This document shows, in pieces, positions 2,811 to 64,000 of a stretch of DNA of 64,000 nt (position 1 is its first letter; each line of letters opens with the position of its first letter). The stretch is from a bacterium (GTDB taxonomy: Bacteria > Hydrothermota > 32-111), in contig JBFXGO010000004.1 of assembly GCA_050239825.1 (NCBI GenBank), positions 4,590 through 68,589 on the forward strand, read 5' to 3'. Under the pieces are notes generated by a model. It was not told where the DNA came from. It was given only the letters and a program-made list of their open reading frames with translations, and searched no databases. The position numbers were made by a program, and so were the translations under genes.

Positions 2811-3266
2811 TCATTTTTTTCCGAGTTGTATAAGCTCAACATTTGCCTGTCTGAGTATCTCTTCTGCATTCTTATCCGGATAACCATCTTTGATGTATAT
2901 TCTCTTAATTCCTGAATTTATTATCATCTTGGCGCATATGAAGCATGGCTGGTTTGTCACATACATGTCCGCTCCTTCAATATTTATTCCCAGCTTTGCC
3001 GCCTGAATTATTGCATTTTGCTCCGCATGCACCGCTCTTGACAGCTCCATTCTCTCTCCGGAAGGAACATTAAGCTTCTCCCTCATGCATCCTCCAATCT
3101 CATCGCAGTGAGGAGTCCCTTTGGGAGGCCCATTGTATCCCGTCGAAAGAATATGTCTGTCCTTTACAATTATGGCTCCAACCTTTCGTCTGAGACATGT
3201 GGCTCTTGTCGAAACAAGCAATGCTATCTCCATGAAGTATTCTTCCCAAGAGGGTCTAGTCGCCAT
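2811..3266 (-). CDS. dCMP deaminase (cytidine/deoxycytidylate deaminase family)
   Basis: 151 aa with zinc-binding motifs HAEQNAI and PCFICAKMI. Confidence 0.85.
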
Positions 3267-4146
3267 TTCTCTCTCCTTGTACTTTTAAAATTAACTCATA
3301 AATATCAATCAAACCGCTGTTTTTACAGGCGTCTTCCAATGCTGAATCGGAGAATATTTCAAGATACTTCTCTGTTTCATAATTTAGCATCAGTCTATGG
3401 TTCGTAGAAAAACCGCTGTGGAATGAACCTACACGCATCAGTTTTGAGGTATCGGCTGAAATAGTATAATACCTGACAAGATTTATTTTATCTCTCTCAT
3501 CTGCTTTTTCAGAGAGTACTGAATCCGGAGAAAAGGCAATTTTTGCCATTAGATTTACAATCTTTTCATCCACAGATGCATTATTCCTTTTTAAAAGCTG
3601 TGTGAAAAATCTTTTGCCGAGCTTGGTTTGATTGAAATTATCCTTATCTGCCATTTCAGTTAAAGCAGTTAGAGCCTGTACTATAACATAATCTGAAGCA
3701 TCCTTTGATTCCGTTATCCTCACTATTTCATCAAAGTCGTATTCCCAGCCTCGGTTTGACGCCATTCTTATGAATGAAACATACTGACTGCTCTTAAGAG
3801 GTTTTTCATAGTCAGTGAAAAAGCACAAAGATTCCTTTTCGAAAATTCTGAATCCATAGTATGCATCAATATTTTTTTCTTTAAGAACTTGCTTAAGAAT
3901 TTGTTTATCATGAATTTTTGAAAGAACTCTGATTCCGACTGCCCTCTTGACCCAATCATCAGATTTCAGCCAATCGGTTAAAAGGTTTGTTGTTTCAATT
4001 TTGTATTCATTTACAAGAATAGAATCAGAGTAAATTTGAATTGAATCTTCATATATACCAAGCTTGCCTACAAGTTCGGTGAAACTCTCCGCGGAGATTA
4101 AGGCGAAGATTGCAATAAATATCGCAGATAAATTAATCTTTGTCAA
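3256..4146 (-). CDS. Secreted hypothetical protein
   Basis: 296 aa with an N-terminal signal-like segment and no recognisable catalytic motif. Confidence 0.45.
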
Positions 4147-30777: not shown

Positions 30778-33240
30778 TCATCTGTTCTCCATATACTGTT
30801 TAAGCATATTGTCCCTCAATTCGAGATTTAGAGAGAGAAAGACCTTTGATGCGCTTTGAAGAAGTAATGATTTCAACTCCTTGTTTTTTCTGTAAATATA
30901 AGTCATATATGCCAATAACTCCGCTTTATACAGCATCTCCTCATTCTTTTCGATTCCAAGAAGCTCATGGGCAAAATCCCTGACTTTGCTCTGTTCCGGC
31001 TCCTTGTTGGCTCTTATAAAATCAAGAACCATTAAATCAAGATTATTGATTATATCATCTTTATTAAAATAATCAAGTTTCAACCACTTAGTGGAGTTTT
31101 TCGCCATTTTAATCTTCCTGTTTTGAAGTACGGCAAAATCGGGAACCGACCTCTTGTCCCTGTAAAAATCAAGAACAAGCTTGTTGTAATATTCGGCATT
31201 ATCCCATTCATACATTCTTATGAAGGCATCTGAAAGATTGTTATAGACAACCATCCTGTAAAAATCATTATCCTTCTCCCTCTCCATCGATAGGAGAGAT
31301 GTGAACATATCAAGAGATTTTGAAAATTCCCCCAGTTTTAGATGTGTGACTGCGAGATTGAGATTGATGCTCCACACTATTGAATTCATACTTGTGAATG
31401 GGAAGATGTCCATAGCTTTGTTGAAGTATTCAAGGGCTTTGAAGAGCTGGTCCTTCTGGTCAAACATATTTCCCATCATCATGTATACCTTTCCAAGGTC
31501 GGCCAAAAAGAGTTCTTTCGCGCATATCTCCTCGCATTTCAAAAAACAATCGACGGCTTCCTTCTCTCTCTGCCTGAACATGTAGTAGTTTGCCAGATTG
31601 GACAGATGCGACACATACTCCTTTTGAGTGAGAACCGTCTGGTCAATATTTTTTACAAACTCCTCAACCATCTCAAATAACTGTTTTCTAATACAGTAAC
31701 TTGTATAGAGTATGTTTGTGTAGGGGTCATCCAGTTTTTCAAGGTCAAGTTCTCCTGCAGTTGAAACAGTCTTCAGAACTTTTGTCTGAGCGCTTATCAC
31801 TGGGTCAGTTATCTTTGCAATCTCCTTTTCCGCAAGCTCGAAATTGGATTCAGCTATCAGTATTCTGGCCTTCAATGAGTGCAGTTCATCACCATCCTCT
31901 CCGGCATTTTTGAGAATTTCCATGGCTTCTTCCATATCTCCGTAATTGTACATGTCGAGAGATGCGGATAATGAGAGCTGTCTGTCTTTGCTCAAAGAGC
32001 ATATTCTCTTTTTTCTTGCAAGTTCAAACATCTTCTTTTGGCATGGCGAATATTTTTTATCATCAGAGAGTGAAAAGAAAATAGGCGGGTAGGAGTAGGT
32101 CAGACAAGAATCTCTTTCAATGAGAATCCCCAAAGAGAGAAGATGCATGACATCTTTGTATAGAGAGGGATTGTCTGCAACCGCAGACATGGATATTTCG
32201 AGTCCGAGTCTGTTCACCCGTTGGAGTGCTTTAACCGTAGAATCGCTTAGAGCAGAGATCTCCTCCTTTGCCGAAAAATCAGTAAGGGTCTCAAATTTGG
32301 CCATTGCCTCCTTTTTGACCGCCATTGAAACCAAAAACGGATTACCCTTGGTTGTCAGCTCCAGATAGTTCAGTGTGAAGAGATTAGCTTTCCTTCCGGC
32401 AAGTTCAAGAAATCTCACAATGTCGTTCTTTGAAAGATTCGACAATGTGTATTCATCGTGCTCTCTCTGTTTGAAAAAGTAAAGGAATTTGTTAAGTTTT
32501 TTATTCCCTTCAATGGTGGCGGGATTGTAAAAAAGTACTGTGACAGAGAATGCGTCATCCTCCCTGAAATTGTCAAGCTCAAGGAATTTTATTCTCTGAA
32601 ATTCACTCTGCAGTTTGTTGAGAAGAGATGTCTTCCCAGATTTAAATCCGCCCTTTATTATCACAGACCTCTCTCCGGCAAGCGACTTCTTTATCTCTCT
32701 CTCCTCCTTGAAAGGCATGTATATTCCGCCGCTCTCTCTCTTTGTATAGAGAGTGGAGCAGTTTTTGCCCCTCTCTTTTGAACAGTACAGAGCAAAATCG
32801 GCATTCTGCATTATGTTTTCAATCTCCTCTATTCCGCCCTCGGCTATTCCGAAGGAGAGTGTCACTGCAACCGACTTATTGACTATAATGAAAGGCCTGG
32901 AAGAAATATACTTTCTAAAATTCTCCATTGCCTCCTTCAATTCAGCGGCGCTTTTGTCAGAGGAGATGAATATAAATTCATCGCCTCCGAATCTTAGCGG
33001 ATAGTCATGTTTTTTGCTGTAGCTTTTGAGAAGACTGCCTATTTCCGTTATTATCTTGTCGCCTGTATAGTGACCGTGCACATCATTTATGTACTTAAAA
33101 TTGTCAATGTCAAAAAAGGCAAGAGAGATTGGCCCGTCAAGTATTGCCTGAGCGTTGAGCATAAATCTTTTGTTGAGTATTCCGGTAAGTTCGTCATAAT
33201 AGACAGGCTCAAATTCCATCCACTGTTTTTCCTGTCCCAT
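30778..33240 (-). CDS. GGDEF (diguanylate cyclase-like) domain fused to P-loop NTPase and TPR-like C-terminal region
   Basis: 820 aa. The N-terminal 170 aa is a GGDEF domain with an intact RFGGDEF and DIDNFKYINDVHGH. Walker A IIKGGFKSGKTSLL follows, then about 450 aa of helical TPR-like repeats. Confidence 0.7.
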   Translation of the reverse strand: MGQEKQWMEFEPVYYDELTGILNKRFMLNAQAILDGPISLAFFDIDNFKYINDVHGHYTGDKIITEIGSLLKSYSKKHDYPLRFGGDEFIFISSDKSAAELKEAMENFRKYISSRPFIIVNKSVAVTLSFGIAEGGIEEIENIMQNADFALYCSKERGKNCSTLYTKRESGGIYMPFKEEREIKKSLAGERSVIIKGGFKSGKTSLLNKLQSEFQRIKFLELDNFREDDAFSVTVLFYNPATIEGNKKLNKFLYFFKQREHDEYTLSNLSKNDIVRFLELAGRKANLFTLNYLELTTKGNPFLVSMAVKKEAMAKFETLTDFSAKEEISALSDSTVKALQRVNRLGLEISMSAVADNPSLYKDVMHLLSLGILIERDSCLTYSYPPIFFSLSDDKKYSPCQKKMFELARKKRICSLSKDRQLSLSASLDMYNYGDMEEAMEILKNAGEDGDELHSLKARILIAESNFELAEKEIAKITDPVISAQTKVLKTVSTAGELDLEKLDDPYTNILYTSYCIRKQLFEMVEEFVKNIDQTVLTQKEYVSHLSNLANYYMFRQREKEAVDCFLKCEEICAKELFLADLGKVYMMMGNMFDQKDQLFKALEYFNKAMDIFPFTSMNSIVWSINLNLAVTHLKLGEFSKSLDMFTSLLSMEREKDNDFYRMVVYNNLSDAFIRMYEWDNAEYYNKLVLDFYRDKRSVPDFAVLQNRKIKMAKNSTKWLKLDYFNKDDIINNLDLMVLDFIRANKEPEQSKVRDFAHELLGIEKNEEMLYKAELLAYMTYIYRKNKELKSLLLQSASKVFLSLNLELRDNMLKQYMENR

Positions 33241-33296
33241 AAAAACATTATAGAGGGTATAGGCAAAAAATCAATATACTCTTTCAGAAGGCGGCG

Positions 33297-33595
33297 GGGG
33301 GTGAAATTTGTGAAAATCAAATGGATGGAAGAAATAGTTTATCTCGATTGGCAACAATTCCACTGTTTCATCAGGACACATAATAGAAGCATCATAGAGA
33401 TGAAATTTTGGGATCTTGTTTTCAAAAAGAACCATATTAATCACATAAAACAGACACTGTTAAAGAATTGAAGAACTAAGAAAAAACATTGGAAATTTGA
33501 CTTTTAATACACAGTTAAAAGCAAAACTAAAGAATCATAACGATAAAATTCGGAACTTCAAAACATTTTCACAAATTTCACCCCCCGCCGCCTTT
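33297..33595. repeat. 28-30-bp perfect inverted repeat pair flanking ~240 bp (MITE-like/large stem-loop)
   Basis: aaggcggcggggggtgaaatttgtgaaaat at 33299-33328 is exactly complementary to attttcacaaatttcaccccccgccgcctt at 33566-33595. The pair sits in a 360-bp intergenic gap between two minus-strand genes. Confidence 0.7.
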
Positions 33596-33599
33596 TTTG

Positions 33600-35276
33600 T
33601 TATTTTATCTGGTTAAGATAAAAGAAAAGTGCGTTTTTTGATGAGAAAATATCATCTGCTCTAAGAGAGACATTGCCGGTGGATGAGTAAAATTCCAGAG
33701 AGAGAAGGTCTCCCTTCTTCAGAGAAAGCACTCCCGCGCAGTTGAGGGTAGAGTATCCTTCAAAATTTTCCTGCAGAGTCACAACCGAATTGAGTTTTTC
33801 CTCCTCTTTTTTGTTTTTAACAAGACGCAATGCCGCTTTGCATGAGGAATCAGGCGTTCCGATTTTCTTTACGGATGCCGTGTATCCTGCATAGTAAATG
33901 CCGTCATAATTGACGGTAATCACTCCTGTCTTTTTATCCCAAGAAAAGAGTGAGTCTCCTCTGAATGTCTTTCTTTCAGAAAATACAATTGATGTGAATT
34001 TGCCGTTTGAAAAAACATCCGAAGCTGTCCATTCGGCCGCTCCGGCAAAAGTGCTGATGCTACCCATCATAGAGAGAGTGTCCGGCTTCATTGACTTCCT
34101 CACTATGATGGAATTGGCGCTGTCTTCAAAAATCGAAAAATCGCTTATTTTATCTCCATCCGCAATTCCCCATCTGACAGGAGAGTTTGTACCTATATTG
34201 TACTTCATAAGAAGCGGAGACCCGGGAAAATTGAGGAATGATTTCATGAAGATATTCCCCTCTCCCATGATGTCATTCTTTGACATTGACAGCCGCCCTC
34301 CGCTGAACTGAATTGAATCTCCGTTCTTCTCCCTTATAAATAGAGCGCCGTCTTTTGATATTTTTGCGTAACCCTCTCCTTCGACAGTCAAATCCCCTTC
34401 AATGCGCCATGGAGTAGTTATTCCGCTGTTTTTCGCACTGCCTGAAAAATATATGGAATCTGTTTTGGTGCGCGTCTTGAAATCACCAGCGAGAACCGTC
34501 TCGTCAGCTCTGAGAACCGAAACAGCCCTACCGTTCATAATGCTTATCTGATTCTGAACATTCAGGTATCCCGTGATATGAAGGTATCTGATGAATGTAA
34601 AGTTATCCGCAAAGTACAATTCCCTTTTCTGTTCATTGCCGTAAATGATGAGCGTGTCTCCCCTCTTATTGTAGCAATTGGATATTATGCCGTAAAAATT
34701 CTTGCCCACTCCCTTTCCCTGCGTCCAAACAAGATATCCTGTTGAAGGCCAGTTGAAATCCTCCGTAATCTCTGAAGCAAATATATCGGAGAATGCGACA
34801 TCCTTTGTCGATCTCATGCTCTCTATCATATTGTGAAAGAAACCCATGTATGCCATGTATCCGGTGTTTTCGAGCGACTTGAACGAGAGATTTTGCAGGG
34901 TAAGATAAATACTGTCGGCTTTGTTTATAAAGACTGTGTTTGAAAGGCTTGCATTGCAGGCGCTGTTGACTCCGCAAATGGAAATAAACCTGAACGGAGT
35001 ATCTATGTATACGGATTCTGCTTCAAGATTTCCGTAAATCAAAATGCTGATTGTGTCCAGCTTATTCTTTCTGCAATGGTCAAGAACCTGATTTATAGAT
35101 GAAAACTCGGCTCCCTGATAAGAGACATTGAATGATTTATAGTATCTGAAATCAATGCTGTCTTTAAGAAGTTCATAAAATTTCGGCATGTATGACTGCA
35201 GGTCCGGCTGAAACGATTGTGAAAACAAGAACAGCGAAACGACTGTTAAAATAATTACTAAAGCGCTTTTTTTCAT
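33600..35276 (-). CDS. Secreted hypothetical protein
   Basis: 558 aa with a signal peptide, a beta-rich composition and no recognisable catalytic motif. Confidence 0.45.
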   Translation of the reverse strand: MKKSALVIILTVVSLFLFSQSFQPDLQSYMPKFYELLKDSIDFRYYKSFNVSYQGAEFSSINQVLDHCRKNKLDTISILIYGNLEAESVYIDTPFRFISICGVNSACNASLSNTVFINKADSIYLTLQNLSFKSLENTGYMAYMGFFHNMIESMRSTKDVAFSDIFASEITEDFNWPSTGYLVWTQGKGVGKNFYGIISNCYNKRGDTLIIYGNEQKRELYFADNFTFIRYLHITGYLNVQNQISIMNGRAVSVLRADETVLAGDFKTRTKTDSIYFSGSAKNSGITTPWRIEGDLTVEGEGYAKISKDGALFIREKNGDSIQFSGGRLSMSKNDIMGEGNIFMKSFLNFPGSPLLMKYNIGTNSPVRWGIADGDKISDFSIFEDSANSIIVRKSMKPDTLSMMGSISTFAGAAEWTASDVFSNGKFTSIVFSERKTFRGDSLFSWDKKTGVITVNYDGIYYAGYTASVKKIGTPDSSCKAALRLVKNKKEEEKLNSVVTLQENFEGYSTLNCAGVLSLKKGDLLSLEFYSSTGNVSLRADDIFSSKNALFFYLNQIK

Positions 35277-45838: not shown

Positions 45839-45910
45839 AGCTGGTGGGCGGATTTGAACCGCCGACCCGCGCTTTACGAAAGCGCTGCTCTACCACTGAG
45901 CCACACCAGC
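45839..45910 (-). tRNA. tRNA-Thr (anticodon CGU)
   Basis: The reverse complement folds as a cloverleaf: acceptor GCTGGTG/CACCAGC, D-arm GGCTCAGTGGTAGAGC, anticodon stem GCGCT/AGCGC with loop TTCGTAA (anticodon CGT), T-arm GGCGG-TTCAAAT-CCGCC. CCA is not encoded. Confidence 0.8.
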
Positions 45911-48247: not shown

Positions 48248-49510
48248 ATGAGAATTGAGTGTCCAAAATGTCACAAAAAATATGAAGTTGAGGATATGTA
48301 TATTCCTATAGGCGGAGGACCTGTAAGATGCCCCAATTGCAAAAATATTTTTGGGATCTATGTTGAGCCGATGGATATTCCCATGACAGAGATAATTGAA
48401 GATGACGAACAGCCGGCCGCTTCAGCAGGAACCCCTTTTACCACACCTGAGATAGGAGAGACATCCTTCTCACCGGAATATGCGCCTCAGGAGGAGCAGG
48501 CGAATTCACCTGCAGACAGTGATAACCTCTCCGAGCAGTTGAATGACCTCGGCAGTTTCTCAAGCTCCGTTCCTGAAACAGAGACTGCATTCGCACAGCC
48601 GACGGAAGAGACTCAGAATTTCGGCAATATATCATTTGACCCTGCCAAATCAGCTCCTGTGGAGGAGGCAAAACCCTCATTTTCTCAAAGCATGGATGAT
48701 TTTGGAGTTCCTCCAGCATTTGCTCAGCCTGCTCAACCTAAAACAGCAGAGCCTGCAATGCCTGATTTCGGAGCAAGTCCATTTGCACAGCCAAAACCTG
48801 CCGCTCCTCAAACACAGGACTTTGGAGTCCCTCCAGCATTTGCTCAGCCGACTCAGCCTAAAACAGCAGAGCCTGCAATGCCTGATTTCGGAGCAAGCCC
48901 ATTTGCGCAGCCAAAACCTGCCGCTCCTCAAACACAGGACTTTGGAGTCCCTCCCGCATTTGCTCAGCCGACTCAACCTAAAACAGCAGAGCCTGCAATG
49001 CCTGATTTCGGAGCAAGTCCATTTGCGCAGCCAAAACCTGCCGCTCCTCAAACACAGGACTTTGGAGCAGTGCCTCCAGCATTTGCTCAACAAAAGCCGG
49101 TAGAGCCTGTGACACATGAACCTATGCCTTTTCCTGCTGCAAAACCAGCACCTCAACCCCAGCAATCGGCTCCTGTCGGACATATAAAGCCGGGCGGAGC
49201 AATGTTTGATGTTCTTCTCGCAGGATTCAATCTTCCGCCGAATTTCAGCTCTATGCCTGAAAACATGCAGAAGGTTCATAAAGATGCCGTCAAGCTTGCA
49301 CGACAACTTGCAAAGGACATTCTCCTATACCATAAAGATGAGGTGGAGAAGGGTATGGCAAATGGAAATATCAAAGAGTCTATGAAGGATGAAATTGAAA
49401 AATCTTATAAATTCTATACACAGAGAATTCAACCTGAAATAATTTCAAGCAGCAATTACTTCAATGAAGCATTGAATAAAATTGTAGCAAAAGGACAGAA
49501 GATTTTTTAG
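48248..49510 (+). CDS. MJ0042-type zinc-ribbon protein with Pro/Ala/Gln-rich tandem-repeat linker and helical C-terminal domain
   Basis: 420 aa. N-terminal CPKCHKKYEV...VRCPNCKNIF, then three identical 40-aa repeats, then a C-terminal helical domain of about 110 aa. GGAG lies 7 nt upstream of the ATG. Confidence 0.7.
   Translation: MRIECPKCHKKYEVEDMYIPIGGGPVRCPNCKNIFGIYVEPMDIPMTEIIEDDEQPAASAGTPFTTPEIGETSFSPEYAPQEEQANSPADSDNLSEQLNDLGSFSSSVPETETAFAQPTEETQNFGNISFDPAKSAPVEEAKPSFSQSMDDFGVPPAFAQPAQPKTAEPAMPDFGASPFAQPKPAAPQTQDFGVPPAFAQPTQPKTAEPAMPDFGASPFAQPKPAAPQTQDFGVPPAFAQPTQPKTAEPAMPDFGASPFAQPKPAAPQTQDFGAVPPAFAQQKPVEPVTHEPMPFPAAKPAPQPQQSAPVGHIKPGGAMFDVLLAGFNLPPNFSSMPENMQKVHKDAVKLARQLAKDILLYHKDEVEKGMANGNIKESMKDEIEKSYKFYTQRIQPEIISSSNYFNEALNKIVAKGQKIF
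48701..49060 (+). repeat. Perfect 120-bp tandem direct repeat x3 (in-frame, inside CDS)
   Basis: The unit tttggagt(t/c)cctcc(a/c)gcatttgctcagcc...cctcaaacacaggac occupies 48701-48820, 48821-48940 and 48941-49060 with 3 or fewer mismatches per copy. A degenerate fourth copy follows. Confidence 0.85.
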
Positions 49511-52669: not shown

Positions 52670-52699
52670 TAAGAATAAAAAAAATCAGGGGAACCTGAT

Positions 52700-52795
52700 T
52701 TTGTAATTTTCCTACGGCAGAATTACCTGCATCAGGTTCAAGGGTCAGCGGAAAAGACCGCTTTCTCAGCCACTTTTAGTAGCTCCCCAAATAGA
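52700..52795 (-). promoter_or_regulatory. TPP (thiamine pyrophosphate) riboswitch controlling thi4-thiE-thiC
   Basis: The minus-strand sequence reads GGGGAGC...GGCUGAGA...GACCCUUGAACCUGAUGCAGGUAAUUCUGCCGUAGGAA. This matches the THI-box consensus CUGAGA...ACCCUUUGAACCUGAUCUGGAUAAUGCCAGCGUAGGGAA. It is followed by the hairpin aaatcaggggaacctgattt before the RBS and start. Confidence 0.85.
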
Positions 52796-52839
52796 TTAAA
52801 CACCATATCAAACATAAAGTCAAGACCCGCATCTTAAAA

Positions 52840-54116
52840 ACGCAATCTGACAGGTAATTCAGTTACGAGTTTCGGGTTGCGGGTTACGAGTTTAAATACA
52901 ATAGGACAGATGATTAAATGACTTGTCTTTACATTTCCGAGGAAAAATTCCAGTACAGCCAGCAAAACAGCCGTGAGCCGTGTGCCATGTGCCTTGAGCT
53001 TAATACGGGGAGTTGAGTAAGATTTTGCCTTTACATTTCCGAATGAGAAGCCTGTCCACAGCGCTCGTCTTTTCAATGCTTCTCATGAGGACAATCAATT
53101 AAATAACTTATTGATACACGAAAGCTACAAGTCGGCGAGGACGCTTCGCGCAGACGCCCATCAAGTGGTTCTCTCCTCGCTCCGCTAACCCATCTTGATA
53201 TAGCGGCGAAGCGGAGTGTGCGAGCCGACGCTATGCCCGCGTGCAGCCAGCAAAACAGCCCTGAGCCGTGTGCCATGTGCCATGAGCTTAATACGGGGAG
53301 TTGAGTAAGATTTTGCCTTTACATTTCCGAATGAGAAGCCTGTCCACAGCGCTCGTCTTTTCAATGCTTCTCATGAGGACAATCAATTAGATAACTTATT
53401 GATACACGAAAGCTACAAGTCGGCGAGGACGCTTCGCGCAGACGCCCATCAAGTGGTTCTCTCCTTGCTCCGCTAACCCATCTTGATATAGCGGCGAAGC
53501 GGAGTGTGCGAGCCGACGCTATGCCCGCGTGCAGCCCCAGTTCAATCTTCAATTATCAATCAACAATAAAATGATAGACCCTTCACGATAGTCATAACCA
53601 CAGAGGCGTTCAGGGTGACACGGTTGAGTAAGATTTTGTCTTTACAATAATCTTCACAAAGTTCTGGTGCAACCCGAGGCGTCTATCATGTGCGTTCGCG
53701 CACATTACACCCTCGCCAATGTGGGGACATTCCTTCGGTGTGTCCCCACTGCAACATTCAATTAATTAACTTATTGATACACGAAAGCTACAAGTCGGCG
53801 AGGACGCTCCGCGAAGACGCCCATCAAGTGGTTCTCTCCTTGCTCCGCTAACCCATCTTGATATAGCGGCGAAGCGGAGTGTGCGAGCCGACGCTATGCC
53901 CGCGTGCAGCCCCAGTTCAATCTTCAATTATCAATCAACAATAAAATGATAGACCCTTCACGATAGTCATAACCATAGAGGCGTTCAGGGTGACACGGTT
54001 GAGTCATAACCATAGAGGCGTTCAGGGTGACACTATTGAGTCATAACCACAGAGGCGTTCAGGGTGACACGGTTGAGTAAGATTTTGTCTTTACAGACTG
54101 GTGTTCAAGCTGACGC
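52840..54116. repeat. Repeat-dense GC-rich non-coding region: nested direct repeats and hairpins
   Basis: A 288-bp unit at 52955-53247 recurs nearly identically at 53243-53535. A third copy of its 142-bp sub-unit lies at 53769-53910. The 37-mer tcataaccayagaggcgttcagggtgacacggttgag occurs once at 53591-53627 and as three tandem copies at 53966-54076. The motif ttgagtaagattttgyctttaca recurs five times. The module ttcagttacgagtttcgggttgcgggttacgagtttaaatacaat lies at 52858-52905. Confidence 0.85.
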
Positions 54117-62508: not shown

Positions 62509-64000
62509 GTGAAAAAAGTTATTTTTATTATCATTATTATTGCTTCAGCATTGTTTGTTTTTGCTTCAAATGAGAGACCATTCAGAGAAGAGGATATGCT
62601 TCTTGCTAACTTTGAACAACCGGAAGATTACAATCAACCCAACTGGGCGACAGATAGTTTGAATGTAAGGGGAGTAGGAATTTATCCTTTCTTTGGAGAT
62701 GCATATGATGTTTTCATCGTAGATACATTAGCGTATTCTTGCATGAATAATTATCTAGTAGTGTTAAATGTTAAGAACAAAGCAAATCCTTTTTTGGTAG
62801 GTTATTTTAGTTTACCGGGTTATGCTTATGGTGTCTATGTTTCAGGAGATTATGCGTATGTTGCTGATGAGGATTATGGTTTACAGATAATAGATATCTC
62901 AAATCCTTCAAGCCCAACCCTTGCAGGGAGCTATGATACACCGAGTTATGCTTATAGTGTCTATGTTTCAGGCAGTTATGCCTATGTTGCTGATGAGGGT
63001 TATGGTTTACAGATAATAGATATCTCAAATCCTTCAAGCCCAACCCTAACAGGAAGCTATGATACACCGGATTATGCAAGGGGTGTCTATGTCTCAGGAG
63101 ATTATGCCTATGTTGCTGATGATAGTTCTGGTTTACAGATAATAGATATCTCAAATCCCATAAGCCCAACCCTTGCAGGGAACTATGATACACCGGATCA
63201 TGCATGGGGTGTCTATGTTTCAGGCAGTTATGCCTATGTTGCTGATGGTTATTCTGGTTTACAGATAATAGATATCTCAAATCCTTCAAGCCCAACACTT
63301 GCAGGGAGCTATGATACACCGGGTTATGCATTGGGTGTCTATGTTTCAGGCAGTTATGCCTATGTTGCTGATGCTGATTATGGTTTACAGATAATAGATA
63401 TCTCAAATCCTTCAAGCCCAACCCTTACAGGGAGCTATGAAACACAGGGTTATGCTTATGGTGTCTATGTATCAGGCAGTTATGCCTATGTTGCTGATTA
63501 TGATTATGGTTTACAGGTAATAGATATCTCAAATCCTTCAAGCCCAACCCTTACAGGGAGCTATGATACACCGGGTTATGCATGGGGTGTCTATGTTTCA
63601 GGCAGTTATGCCTATGTTACTGATCGTAATTCAGGTCTACAGATAATCAACATCTCTGACCCCACAAGCCCAACACTTGCAGAGAGCTATGATACACCGG
63701 GGTGGGCTTATGGTGTCTATGTTTCCGGCAGTTATGCCTATGTTGCTGATGATGATTATGGTTTACAGATAATAGATATCTCAAATCCTTCAAGCCCAAC
63801 TCTTGCAGGAAGCTATGATACACCGGGGAATGCTATAGGTGTCTATGTATCAGGCAGTTATGCCTATGTTACTGATCGTAATTCAGGTCTACAGATAATC
63901 AACATCTCTGACCCCACAAGCCCAACACTTACAGGAAACTATGATACACCGGGGATTGCAAGGGGTGTCTATGTTTCAGGAGATTATGCCTATGTTGCTG
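62509..64000 (+). CDS. LVIVD-repeat surface protein (signal peptide; runs off window end)
   Basis: GGAGG lies 7 nt upstream of the GTG. After the signal peptide VKKVIFIIIIIASALFVFA come 13 or more consecutive 40-aa LVIVD units (GVYVSGSYAYVADxDYGLQIIDISNPSSPTLxGSYDTPGxA), nearly identical at the DNA level. Confidence 0.8.
   Translation, partial: MKKVIFIIIIIASALFVFASNERPFREEDMLLANFEQPEDYNQPNWATDSLNVRGVGIYPFFGDAYDVFIVDTLAYSCMNNYLVVLNVKNKANPFLVGYFSLPGYAYGVYVSGDYAYVADEDYGLQIIDISNPSSPTLAGSYDTPSYAYSVYVSGSYAYVADEGYGLQIIDISNPSSPTLTGSYDTPDYARGVYVSGDYAYVADDSSGLQIIDISNPISPTLAGNYDTPDHAWGVYVSGSYAYVADGYSGLQIIDISNPSSPTLAGSYDTPGYALGVYVSGSYAYVADADYGLQIIDISNPSSPTLTGSYETQGYAYGVYVSGSYAYVADYDYGLQVIDISNPSSPTLTGSYDTPGYAWGVYVSGSYAYVTDRNSGLQIINISDPTSPTLAESYDTPGWAYGVYVSGSYAYVADDDYGLQIIDISNPSSPTLAGSYDTPGNAIGVYVSGSYAYVTDRNSGLQIINISDPTSPTLTGNYDTPGIARGVYVSGDYAYVA

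Follow-up and report, generated by a model that had tools for sequence, protein, structure and literature searches.

A perfect 30-bp inverted repeat encloses a short stretch of non-coding DNA at positions 33288-33594 of the 64,000-nucleotide sequence analysed here (the whole of which is called the window below), between two genes of the same orientation. The repeat itself is confirmed as an observation. The 307-bp element that it delimits is a real, MITE-like foldback insertion with no demonstrated function, it belongs to known kinds of element, and it is present as a single copy in the 64-kb window. As to its origin, we lean tentatively, with rather less than even confidence, towards a lineage-specific non-coding foldback insertion of the MITE type, that is, a non-autonomous transposable element or the relic of one, whose enzyme would be encoded elsewhere.

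The repeat search divides the element into three parts.

33288-33317, no strand: left arm, proximal to the promoter on the gene (minus) strand, AAGGCGGCGGGGGGTGAAATTTGTGAAAAT, complementary to 33565-33594 at 30 of 30 positions.
33318-33564, no strand: interior, 247 nt, AT-rich, with no credible gene or structured RNA.
33565-33594, no strand: right arm, exact reverse complement of the left one and distal to the GGDEF gene; 5 nt separate it from the preceding stop codon, that of the 558-aa gene.

This pair is the sole long perfect inverted repeat within the 64-kb window. A search of the window with the arm at up to three mismatches returned the two arm sites only, and none of 100 dinucleotide-preserving shuffles gave a match. 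The first-pass annotation, which described a perfect inverted repeat of 28-30 bp and judged it to be far beyond chance, was therefore right in both respects. Its boundaries and some of its measures need correction: the interval given there, 33297-33595, misses the first 9 nt of the left arm and includes 1 nt beyond the right arm, and the spacer, put at about 240 bp, measures 247 nt. It also called both the interior and the genome AT-rich, which holds for the interior (29.6% GC), while the window, at 40.7% GC, points to a genome that is moderately AT-rich only.

The arm contains 13 G versus 2 C, and its best internal dyad is 4 bp long (ATTT/AAAT). The right arm is preceded by an A-run on the gene strand and followed by TTTTTTGTTATTTT on the plus strand. 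The predicted folding energy of the full element, -94.8 kcal/mol versus -37.9 kcal/mol for the interior alone, is due to the arms alone; the predicted fold of the interior (33318-33564) is no better than that of its shuffles (z = -0.67). The interior has less internal symmetry than its shuffles have on average, and thus it is not a decayed long palindrome.

The element is intergenic, and the features on either side of it are all on the minus strand.

33600-35276, minus strand: upstream gene, 558 aa, lineage-specific and without a Pfam domain, the last of a co-oriented gene run.
33247-33274, minus strand: promoter of the GGDEF-TPR gene, sigma-70-type, TTGATT-16-TATAAT, 6 nt to the ATG, a 10/12 match; outside the element, 13 nt from the left arm.
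30778-33240, minus strand: downstream gene, 820 aa, with a GGDEF diguanylate-cyclase domain (PF00990, 1.1e-28) and TPR repeats; orthologues P0008-P0011.

Between the start of the GGDEF-TPR gene and the left arm there are 47 nt, and 5 nt separate the right arm from the stop codon of the upstream 558-aa gene. The layout TTGATT-16-TATAAT, with the ATG after 6 nt, also occurs in L010, L027, L028, and L003, that is, in five lineages when the window is counted, and the promoter is considered real because it recurs at the same 6-nt distance from the ATG in those four other lineages. The GGDEF-TPR mRNA is probably leaderless. Since the conserved promoter lies outside the element, the latter is an add-on and not part of the GGDEF control region. 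A terminator scan called no site between the 558-aa gene and the GGDEF gene on either strand. The window is a housekeeping region; among its genes, almost all of which lie on the minus strand, are dnaG, rpoD, hisS, aspS, def, recG, thi genes, and NADH-dehydrogenase-like genes. The Rfam matches at gathering level across the whole window are one TPP riboswitch and one tRNA, both located elsewhere.

To describe the coding content of the gap, all ORFs of at least 20 aa were listed, and the three longest inside it were scanned against Pfam and NCBIfam. The ORFs inside the element, of up to 57 aa, have no Pfam or NCBIfam support. Three interior features deserve separate mention.

33310-33471, plus strand: 53-codon ORF with a Shine-Dalgarno-like GGGGGGTGA and a GTG start in the left arm; rejected as a gene.
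33359-33399, minus strand: stretch collinear with the real -10 box, the ATG, and the first GGDEF codons; a marginal similarity.
33534-33561, minus strand: promoter-like TTGAAG-16-TATGAT at the edge of the interior by the distal arm; 9/12, a weak match at chance level in this AT-rich DNA.

No homologue of the 53-codon ORF was found among 5.8 billion proteins or 1.84 billion cluster representatives, and the earlier statement that the interior holds no ORF of note agrees with the lack of any match in Pfam, NCBIfam, or the protein collections. The ORF at 33007-33471 (plus strand), which the same annotation regarded as spurious, is rejected as a whole, being mostly antisense to the Pfam-supported GGDEF domain and having no homologue for its part inside the element. 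A known structured RNA was rejected as well: the Rfam search of 32800-34000 at E up to 10 gave only chance-level snoRNA and lncRNA matches far below the gathering scores, no covariance model matched near any family threshold, and the interior folds like its shuffles.

The promoter-like site at 33534-33561 reads towards the GGDEF gene, and its position relative to the arm resembles, by eye, that of the real promoter relative to a GC-rich module of lineage L028 described below. Four promoter-like sites were found versus 1.6 expected, and the two interior ones, both 9/12, face the GGDEF gene. The alignment score of 33359-33399 was equalled by 10 of 1000 dinucleotide shuffles (p about 0.01); by its sequence, this stretch may be a decayed local duplicate of the promoter and the 5' coding sequence. 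The interior has no similarity elsewhere in the window, in the loci of relatives, or in plasmids or phages.

For comparison with relatives, five homologue clusters besides the window were available for the 558-aa protein and five for the GGDEF protein. In L010/L009, whose GGDEF protein is 73% identical, the gap between the two genes is 54 nt; in L027, where the GGDEF protein is 70% and the 558-aa protein 67% identical, it is 66 nt. Both lack the element, and the gaps of L010 and L027 contain no arm-like sequence. Outside the element, the distance from the stop codon to the -35 box is 5 + 13 = 18 nt in the window versus 19 nt in L010. The same gap in L003-L006 is occupied by an IS630-type IS (DDE_3, 32-nt imperfect TIRs, TA flanks), with TIRs unrelated to the 30-bp arms, and by an extra ALGX-like gene. 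In L011 an array of GCTGGTAY octamers follows the stop codon, and small hairpins unrelated to the stem of the window are found directly after the same stop codon in relatives. The comparison of orthologous gaps suggested by the first-pass annotation thus fits an insertion, the element being absent from L010/L009 and L027; with relatives at 67-73% protein identity, an exact empty site is not definable. The absence of the element from the gaps of relatives, together with the turnover of the spacer, supports the word insertion. Judged from these sequences, the 307-bp element is specific to the lineage of the window, and the spacer is a site of recurrent insertion and turnover.

A partial counterpart of the arm was detected in L028, a Logan contig; its GGDEF protein shares 63% identity with that of the window and 92% with that of L003. 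The contig starts 77 nt upstream of the ATG, and here CCAAAAGGCTCGGGGGATAAAATTTCTG abuts the -35 box of the same promoter. It is the only approximate match to the arm, at an edit distance of 8/30, in a Sellers scan with up to 8 edits of 255 kb of the relatives' loci on two strands; none of 20,000 shuffles of the 77-nt region reached an edit distance of 8. The module has the polarity of the distal arm in the window, with its GC-rich end away from the promoter and an A-run before it. It is missing in L003, and likewise in the nearest relatives of the window. The L028 contig starts 31 nt, which we take to be the k of the assembler, upstream of the point where the similarity to L003 resumes, and this start would fit a repeat boundary.

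Several properties of the element are those of MITEs. It has perfect terminal inverted repeats (30/30), it is small, AT-rich, and gene-free (307 bp, 29.6% GC, no supported ORF or RNA), and it shows presence/absence polymorphism, being absent from L010/L009 and L027 at 67-73% protein identity. A length of 307 bp with perfect arms and an AT-rich interior is also the size and build sought by MITE finders (PMC10969869). A flanking target-site duplication was not found: the sequences just outside the 30-bp arms share no direct repeat at any length from 2 to 12 nt. The earlier MITE reading is thus retained as regards the inverted repeats, small size, AT-richness, non-coding interior, and absence in relatives, and not as regards the duplication. 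Because this defining duplication was searched for without success, we file the element as MITE-like only, not as a MITE.

No transposase was found among the 49 ORFs that cover the window when they were compared with Pfam, as had been claimed at first reading, and no recombinase domain was detected by Pfam in ORFs of at least 150 aa across the 64 kb. A cognate IS with matching ends is absent from the 64-kb window, and the TIRs of the IS630-type elements of relatives are unrelated. Similarly, the 64-kb window contains no second copy of the element (arm at up to three mismatches; blastn-short of the element and of the interior against the window and all loci), and no other hairpin-ended element was seen in the window or in the loci of relatives. 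The 20-mer GGCGGGGGGTGAAATTTGTG had no match in 185,579 species-representative genomes, JGI metagenomes, and IMG/VR viral contigs, collections in which the source locus itself is absent. The 20-mer GGGGTGAAATTTGTGAAAAT gave 6 + 3 single matches in the same collections, in unrelated taxa and with similarity that does not extend; all nine are unrelated chance matches. The junction 24-mers of the element had no match in viral contigs, and blastn of the element against plasmids and phages yielded chance matches only.

A target duplication could nevertheless be concealed within the arms. Within each arm, the character of the sequence shifts at a short palindrome, AAGGCGGCGGGGGGTG-AAATTT-GTGAAAAT, and AATT is the only direct repeat of at least 4 bp that abuts a shortened inverted repeat. 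This leads to a sub-hypothesis with the following candidate parts.

33305-33308, no strand: AATT, left copy of the candidate target duplication, inside the arm, palindromic.
33309-33573, no strand: putative alternative mobile unit of 265 bp, with TG…CA ends and 9-bp terminal repeats TGTGAAAAT…ATTTTCACA.
33574-33577, no strand: AATT, right copy of the candidate target duplication.

The outer 17 bp of each arm (33288-33304 and 33578-33594) would then once have formed, as its two halves, a native GC-rich hairpin downstream of the stop codon, reconstructed as AAGGCGGCGGGGGGTGA/TCACCCCCCGCCGCCTT with an AATT loop. With a predicted folding energy of -39.5 kcal/mol (z = -8.4), this hairpin begins 5 nt past the stop codon of the 558-aa gene, with an A-run on one side and a T-run on the other strand; no stem like it was found elsewhere in the window. 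The inner 265-bp unit would have landed in the AATT loop and duplicated AATT. Because AATT is palindromic, the stem, the duplication, and the terminal repeat would together look like a single perfect inverted repeat of 30 bp, and no duplication would be visible beyond it. This parse would account for the terminator-like outer arm, the missing outside duplication, and the perfect arms at the same time. It is not unique, since AT or AAATTT would be equally possible duplications, and it would leave just 9 bp of terminal repeat, with no similarity further inward.

The favoured MITE-type insertion would have moved in trans. Read-through from upstream would produce an RNA with a 30-bp perfect stem, worth about -57 kcal/mol beyond the folding of the interior, and RNase III could cleave this stem, or the stem could shield or stabilise the 3' end of the upstream transcript, in the manner of Correia elements (PMC2649163). 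The mobility of the element, its hairpin-loop target, and these RNA consequences are what we infer from its structure; most likely, no effect of the element is under selection. Several observations weigh against the MITE-type reading. No duplication flanks the 30-bp arms, there is no second copy in 64 kb and no transposase in the window, and the "empty site" is an absence only, in relatives of 67-73% protein identity. If part of the interior is indeed a degraded duplicate of the nearby promoter and 5' coding sequence (p about 0.01), its origin would be local rather than foreign, and a simple insertion does not predict the arm-like module of L028, which is oriented like the distal arm and placed directly against the promoter.

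The same structure could be an invertible segment, an explanation that was not considered in the first-pass annotation and that fits inverted repeats without a flanking duplication at least as well. The arms would be the sites of an unlinked site-specific recombinase, and the 247-bp interior would flip, resulting in phase-variable c-di-GMP signalling; we regard this as somewhat unlikely. A flip would alter the transcription that enters the GGDEF-TPR gene, as read-through or as an extra contribution, or the antisense transcription that enters the upstream gene. Perfect inverted repeats without flanking duplication around a short intergenic segment, immediately upstream of a gene, are what such a switch looks like, and repeated recombination would keep the arms identical. 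The size is also typical, with an interior below 300 bp, as more than 75% of 10,983 invertons identified by PhaseFinder are shorter than 300 bases (PMC11602134). In C. difficile, the c-di-GMP enzymes PdcB and PdcC are phase-variable under the control of an unlinked recombinase (pdcB, pdcC; PMC9286219), so the lack of a recombinase domain in ORFs of at least 150 aa over 64 kb does not exclude a switch here. The two interior promoter-like sites that point to the GGDEF gene would suit an inverton, but they are at chance level (9/12; 4 versus 1.6 expected), and the conserved promoter between the repeats and the ATG means that the switch alone could not turn the gene off. Neither strand carries an orientation-specific terminator. 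Moreover, the arms lack the dyad-symmetric half-sites that are usual, although not universal, in the core sites of tyrosine and serine recombinases (the best dyad is 4 bp). Both assemblies discussed below show one orientation, which is a weak argument, as a single sample is the probable source of the two and an assembler gives out the majority form. The fuller proposal, a working switch with an unlinked recombinase that gates transcription into the leaderless GGDEF-TPR gene, with the L028 module as a remnant or precursor of a recombination site, appears rather unlikely.

A local origin is unlikely in our estimation. The repeat would be a local inverted duplication or quasi-palindrome that arose when template switching or gene conversion recently copied one arm, native intergenic sequence beside the promoter, in inverted orientation. 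The interior would be local sequence as well, old and decayed; the whole would be neither mobile nor invertible, and any effect would be incidental or at the RNA level. In agreement with this, CCAAAAGGCTCGGGGGATAAAATTTCTG of L028, the sole approximate arm match (8/30 edits), lies directly against the -35 box and shares the polarity and the preceding A-run of the distal arm; the stretch 33359-33399 aligns with the real -10 box, the ATG, and the 5' coding sequence (p about 0.01); and the distal arm has a promoter-like site after it, in the same arrangement as the module and the real promoter in L028. However, these interior similarities are marginal, and the 30/30 identity of the arms needs a very recent event or ongoing homogenisation. 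No microhomology that would mark a template switch can be read from the sequence. The GC-rich module is missing in L003, whose GGDEF protein is 92% identical to that of L028, and in the nearest relatives of the window, and this patchy occurrence suggests that it is gained or lost fast, as mobile DNA would be. Far less probable is a self-contained small gene on the plus strand, starting at 33310 in the left arm, whose mRNA would close on itself and hide the start, like the mRNAs of type I toxins, with the right arm and the T-run forming the 3' end. GGGGGGTGA and, 5 nt further, a GTG open the 53-codon ORF; in L013 and L015, two of the nine matched genomes, GGGGTGAAATTTGTG can be read by eye as a ribosome-binding site with a GTG start; TTTTTTGTTATTTT follows the right arm on the plus strand; and about 8 nt before the left arm there is a TATACT box. 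Yet this box has no acceptable -35 and the scan calls no plus-strand promoter there, the mirror-image start in the other arm opens a frame of only 4 codons, and the ORF has no homologue in Pfam, NCBIfam, the 5.8 billion proteins, or the 1.84 billion representatives. A type I toxin-antitoxin-like gene was rejected: the ORF and the pairing are possible, but the peptide is non-hydrophobic and has no homologue. Scarcely credible, finally, is a chimeric fold-back join produced by a k-mer assembler, even though the arm length of 30 equals k-1 for assemblies with k = 31 and the locus is supported by one sample only. A second assembly (Logan, run SRR27751817) is identical in this region, including the orientation of the interior, the two agreeing base for base over a compared stretch of 480 bases with the element in it. 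About 18 kb of the window lies past one end of the Logan contig, and about 4.5 kb of the Logan contig lies past the start of the window; they are thus separate assemblies, and an assembler artefact is unlikely. The gene order is normal on both sides of the element and matches that of relatives.

Among known systems, Correia elements (CREEs) and other MITEs resemble the element in being small, non-coding, and intergenic, in having terminal inverted repeats, and in lying near a promoter where they can be co-transcribed; MITEs are also polymorphic between relatives, as the element is. CREEs are about 100-155 bp long, are flanked by TA duplications, and occur in hundreds of copies. In contrast, the element of the window is 307 bp long, has no flanking duplication, is known in one copy, and shows no similarity to catalogued elements. 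The paired ends of Correia elements can form a long RNA stem that RNase III can bind and then cleave or protect (PMC2649163).

Under the favoured MITE-type reading with a hairpin-loop target, a second likeness is to IS and their derivatives that target palindromes (IS1397, ISKpn1, and IS621, among others), with a TG…CA unit, a 4-bp duplication, and a GC-rich extragenic hairpin after a stop codon. Members of the IS3 family typically have TG…CA ends and duplications of 3-5 bp. IS elements of five families, including the IS3 members IS1397 and ISKpn1, target extragenic palindromes (PMC1525189). Unlike these, the element of the window has no transposase and has only 9-bp terminal repeats; and unlike the hairpins of the REP family, its hairpin is single and reconstructed, with no similar one elsewhere in the window.

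Known invertons, such as those of C. difficile pdcB/pdcC, flgB, and cwpV and the invertible promoters of Bacteroides, likewise have inverted repeats around less than 300 bp upstream of a gene. The pdcB/pdcC switches share with the locus of the window an enzyme of c-di-GMP metabolism as their target, and the recombinase may be unlinked (PMC9286219; PMC11602134). Unlike known invertons, the locus of the window is known from assembled sequence in one orientation, has its own promoter downstream of the repeats, and has no dyad core. The outer arms also resemble Rho-independent terminators, with an A-run, a stem of 12 nt of G+C, and a plus-strand T-run, 5 nt after a stop codon; they differ in a "loop" of 247 nt (279 nt if the GC-rich part alone pairs) and in having the T-run on the non-coding strand. 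An intrinsic terminator was rejected, with its 247-nt loop, a U-run on the plus strand only, and no call by the scan. The fallback offered in the first-pass annotation, a giant regulatory hairpin or terminator, was likewise not borne out, as no terminator-like site was called and the interior folds at chance level (z = -0.67).

If the element is of the MITE type, it matters little, as one more small mobile element that is mainly useful as a strain marker, although it would show that a target duplication can hide in an apparent long inverted repeat after insertion into a hairpin loop. To our knowledge, no phase variation is known in this uncultivated lineage; if the locus is an inverton, such switches would extend to a poorly known lineage, and a c-di-GMP synthase would join the short list of phase-variable signalling enzymes. 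Whichever reading holds, the spacer between these two genes has been rebuilt in almost every lineage examined, its states being a minimal gap, a small hairpin, an octamer array, an IS630-type IS with an extra gene, a GC-rich module, and the 307-bp element.

The promoter of the GGDEF-TPR gene, TTGATT-16/17-TATAAT, ends exactly 6 nt upstream of the ATG in all five lineages:

Promoter and start region of the GGDEF-TPR gene
33238-33274, window
3262-3305, relative's locus L010
3860-3895, relative's locus L027
44-80, L028
9368-9404, relative's locus L003

The first ~30 coding nucleotides are near-identical between lineages at the DNA level, compared with an overall protein identity of 60-73 %. This suggests that the GGDEF-TPR mRNA is leaderless and that its 5' end is constrained.

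In the stretch 1-48 of the Logan contig SRR22315503_738245 (L028), the -35 box of the orthologous promoter is adjoined by a GC-rich module, which resembles one arm of the inverted repeat bounding the 307-bp element of the window. The contig begins 31 nt ahead of the point where similarity to L003 resumes, and its first 15 nt form the palindrome AATTTC-TCT-GAAATT. The module may be where a repeated element ends, or one of the two halves of a long palindrome.

The spacer that holds the 307-bp element is occupied in L003 (6681-7817), and also in L004-L006, by an insertion sequence of the IS630 family, located immediately past the 558/560-aa gene's stop codon. This insertion sequence encodes a 354-aa transposase with HTH and DDE_3 domains, has terminal inverted repeats of 32 nt (78 % identity) with TA bordering both outer ends, and is followed by an extra ALGX-like gene. 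In the JGI contig Ga0172375_10096097 (L011, 2469-2590), tandem GCTGGTAY octamers lie directly 3' of the stop codon of the 558-aa orthologue, and the contig stops inside this array; the sister locus L027 has one related unit forming a short hairpin, and nothing more.

Elsewhere in the window, two long in-frame tandem repeats were found, as well as a tRNA gene and a TPP riboswitch, these last two being ordinary features:

45839-45910, minus strand, tRNA gene
48701-49089, 120-nt unit, 3.2 copies, in-frame, inside the zinc-ribbon protein gene 48248-49510
52692-52799, TPP riboswitch, located upstream of thi4/thiE/thiC
62814-64000, 126-nt unit, 9.4 copies with 86 % matches, in-frame, in an ORF continuing past the window end

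A non-coding 1.3-kb block of higher GC content (52840-54100) separates the thi operon and its riboswitch from NADH-dehydrogenase-like genes and contains two kinds of repeat:

52953-53903, 288-nt unit, two copies 98 % identical and a third at 62 %
53965-54078, 37-nt unit AGTCATAACCAYAGAGGCGTTCAGGGTGACACGGTTG, 3.1 copies

The 37-nt unit also occurs as a solo copy at 53590. The block has no Rfam match, E <= 1 included, and lacks a convincing ORF. It could be a repeat element, or an undescribed RNA arranged in tandem copies.
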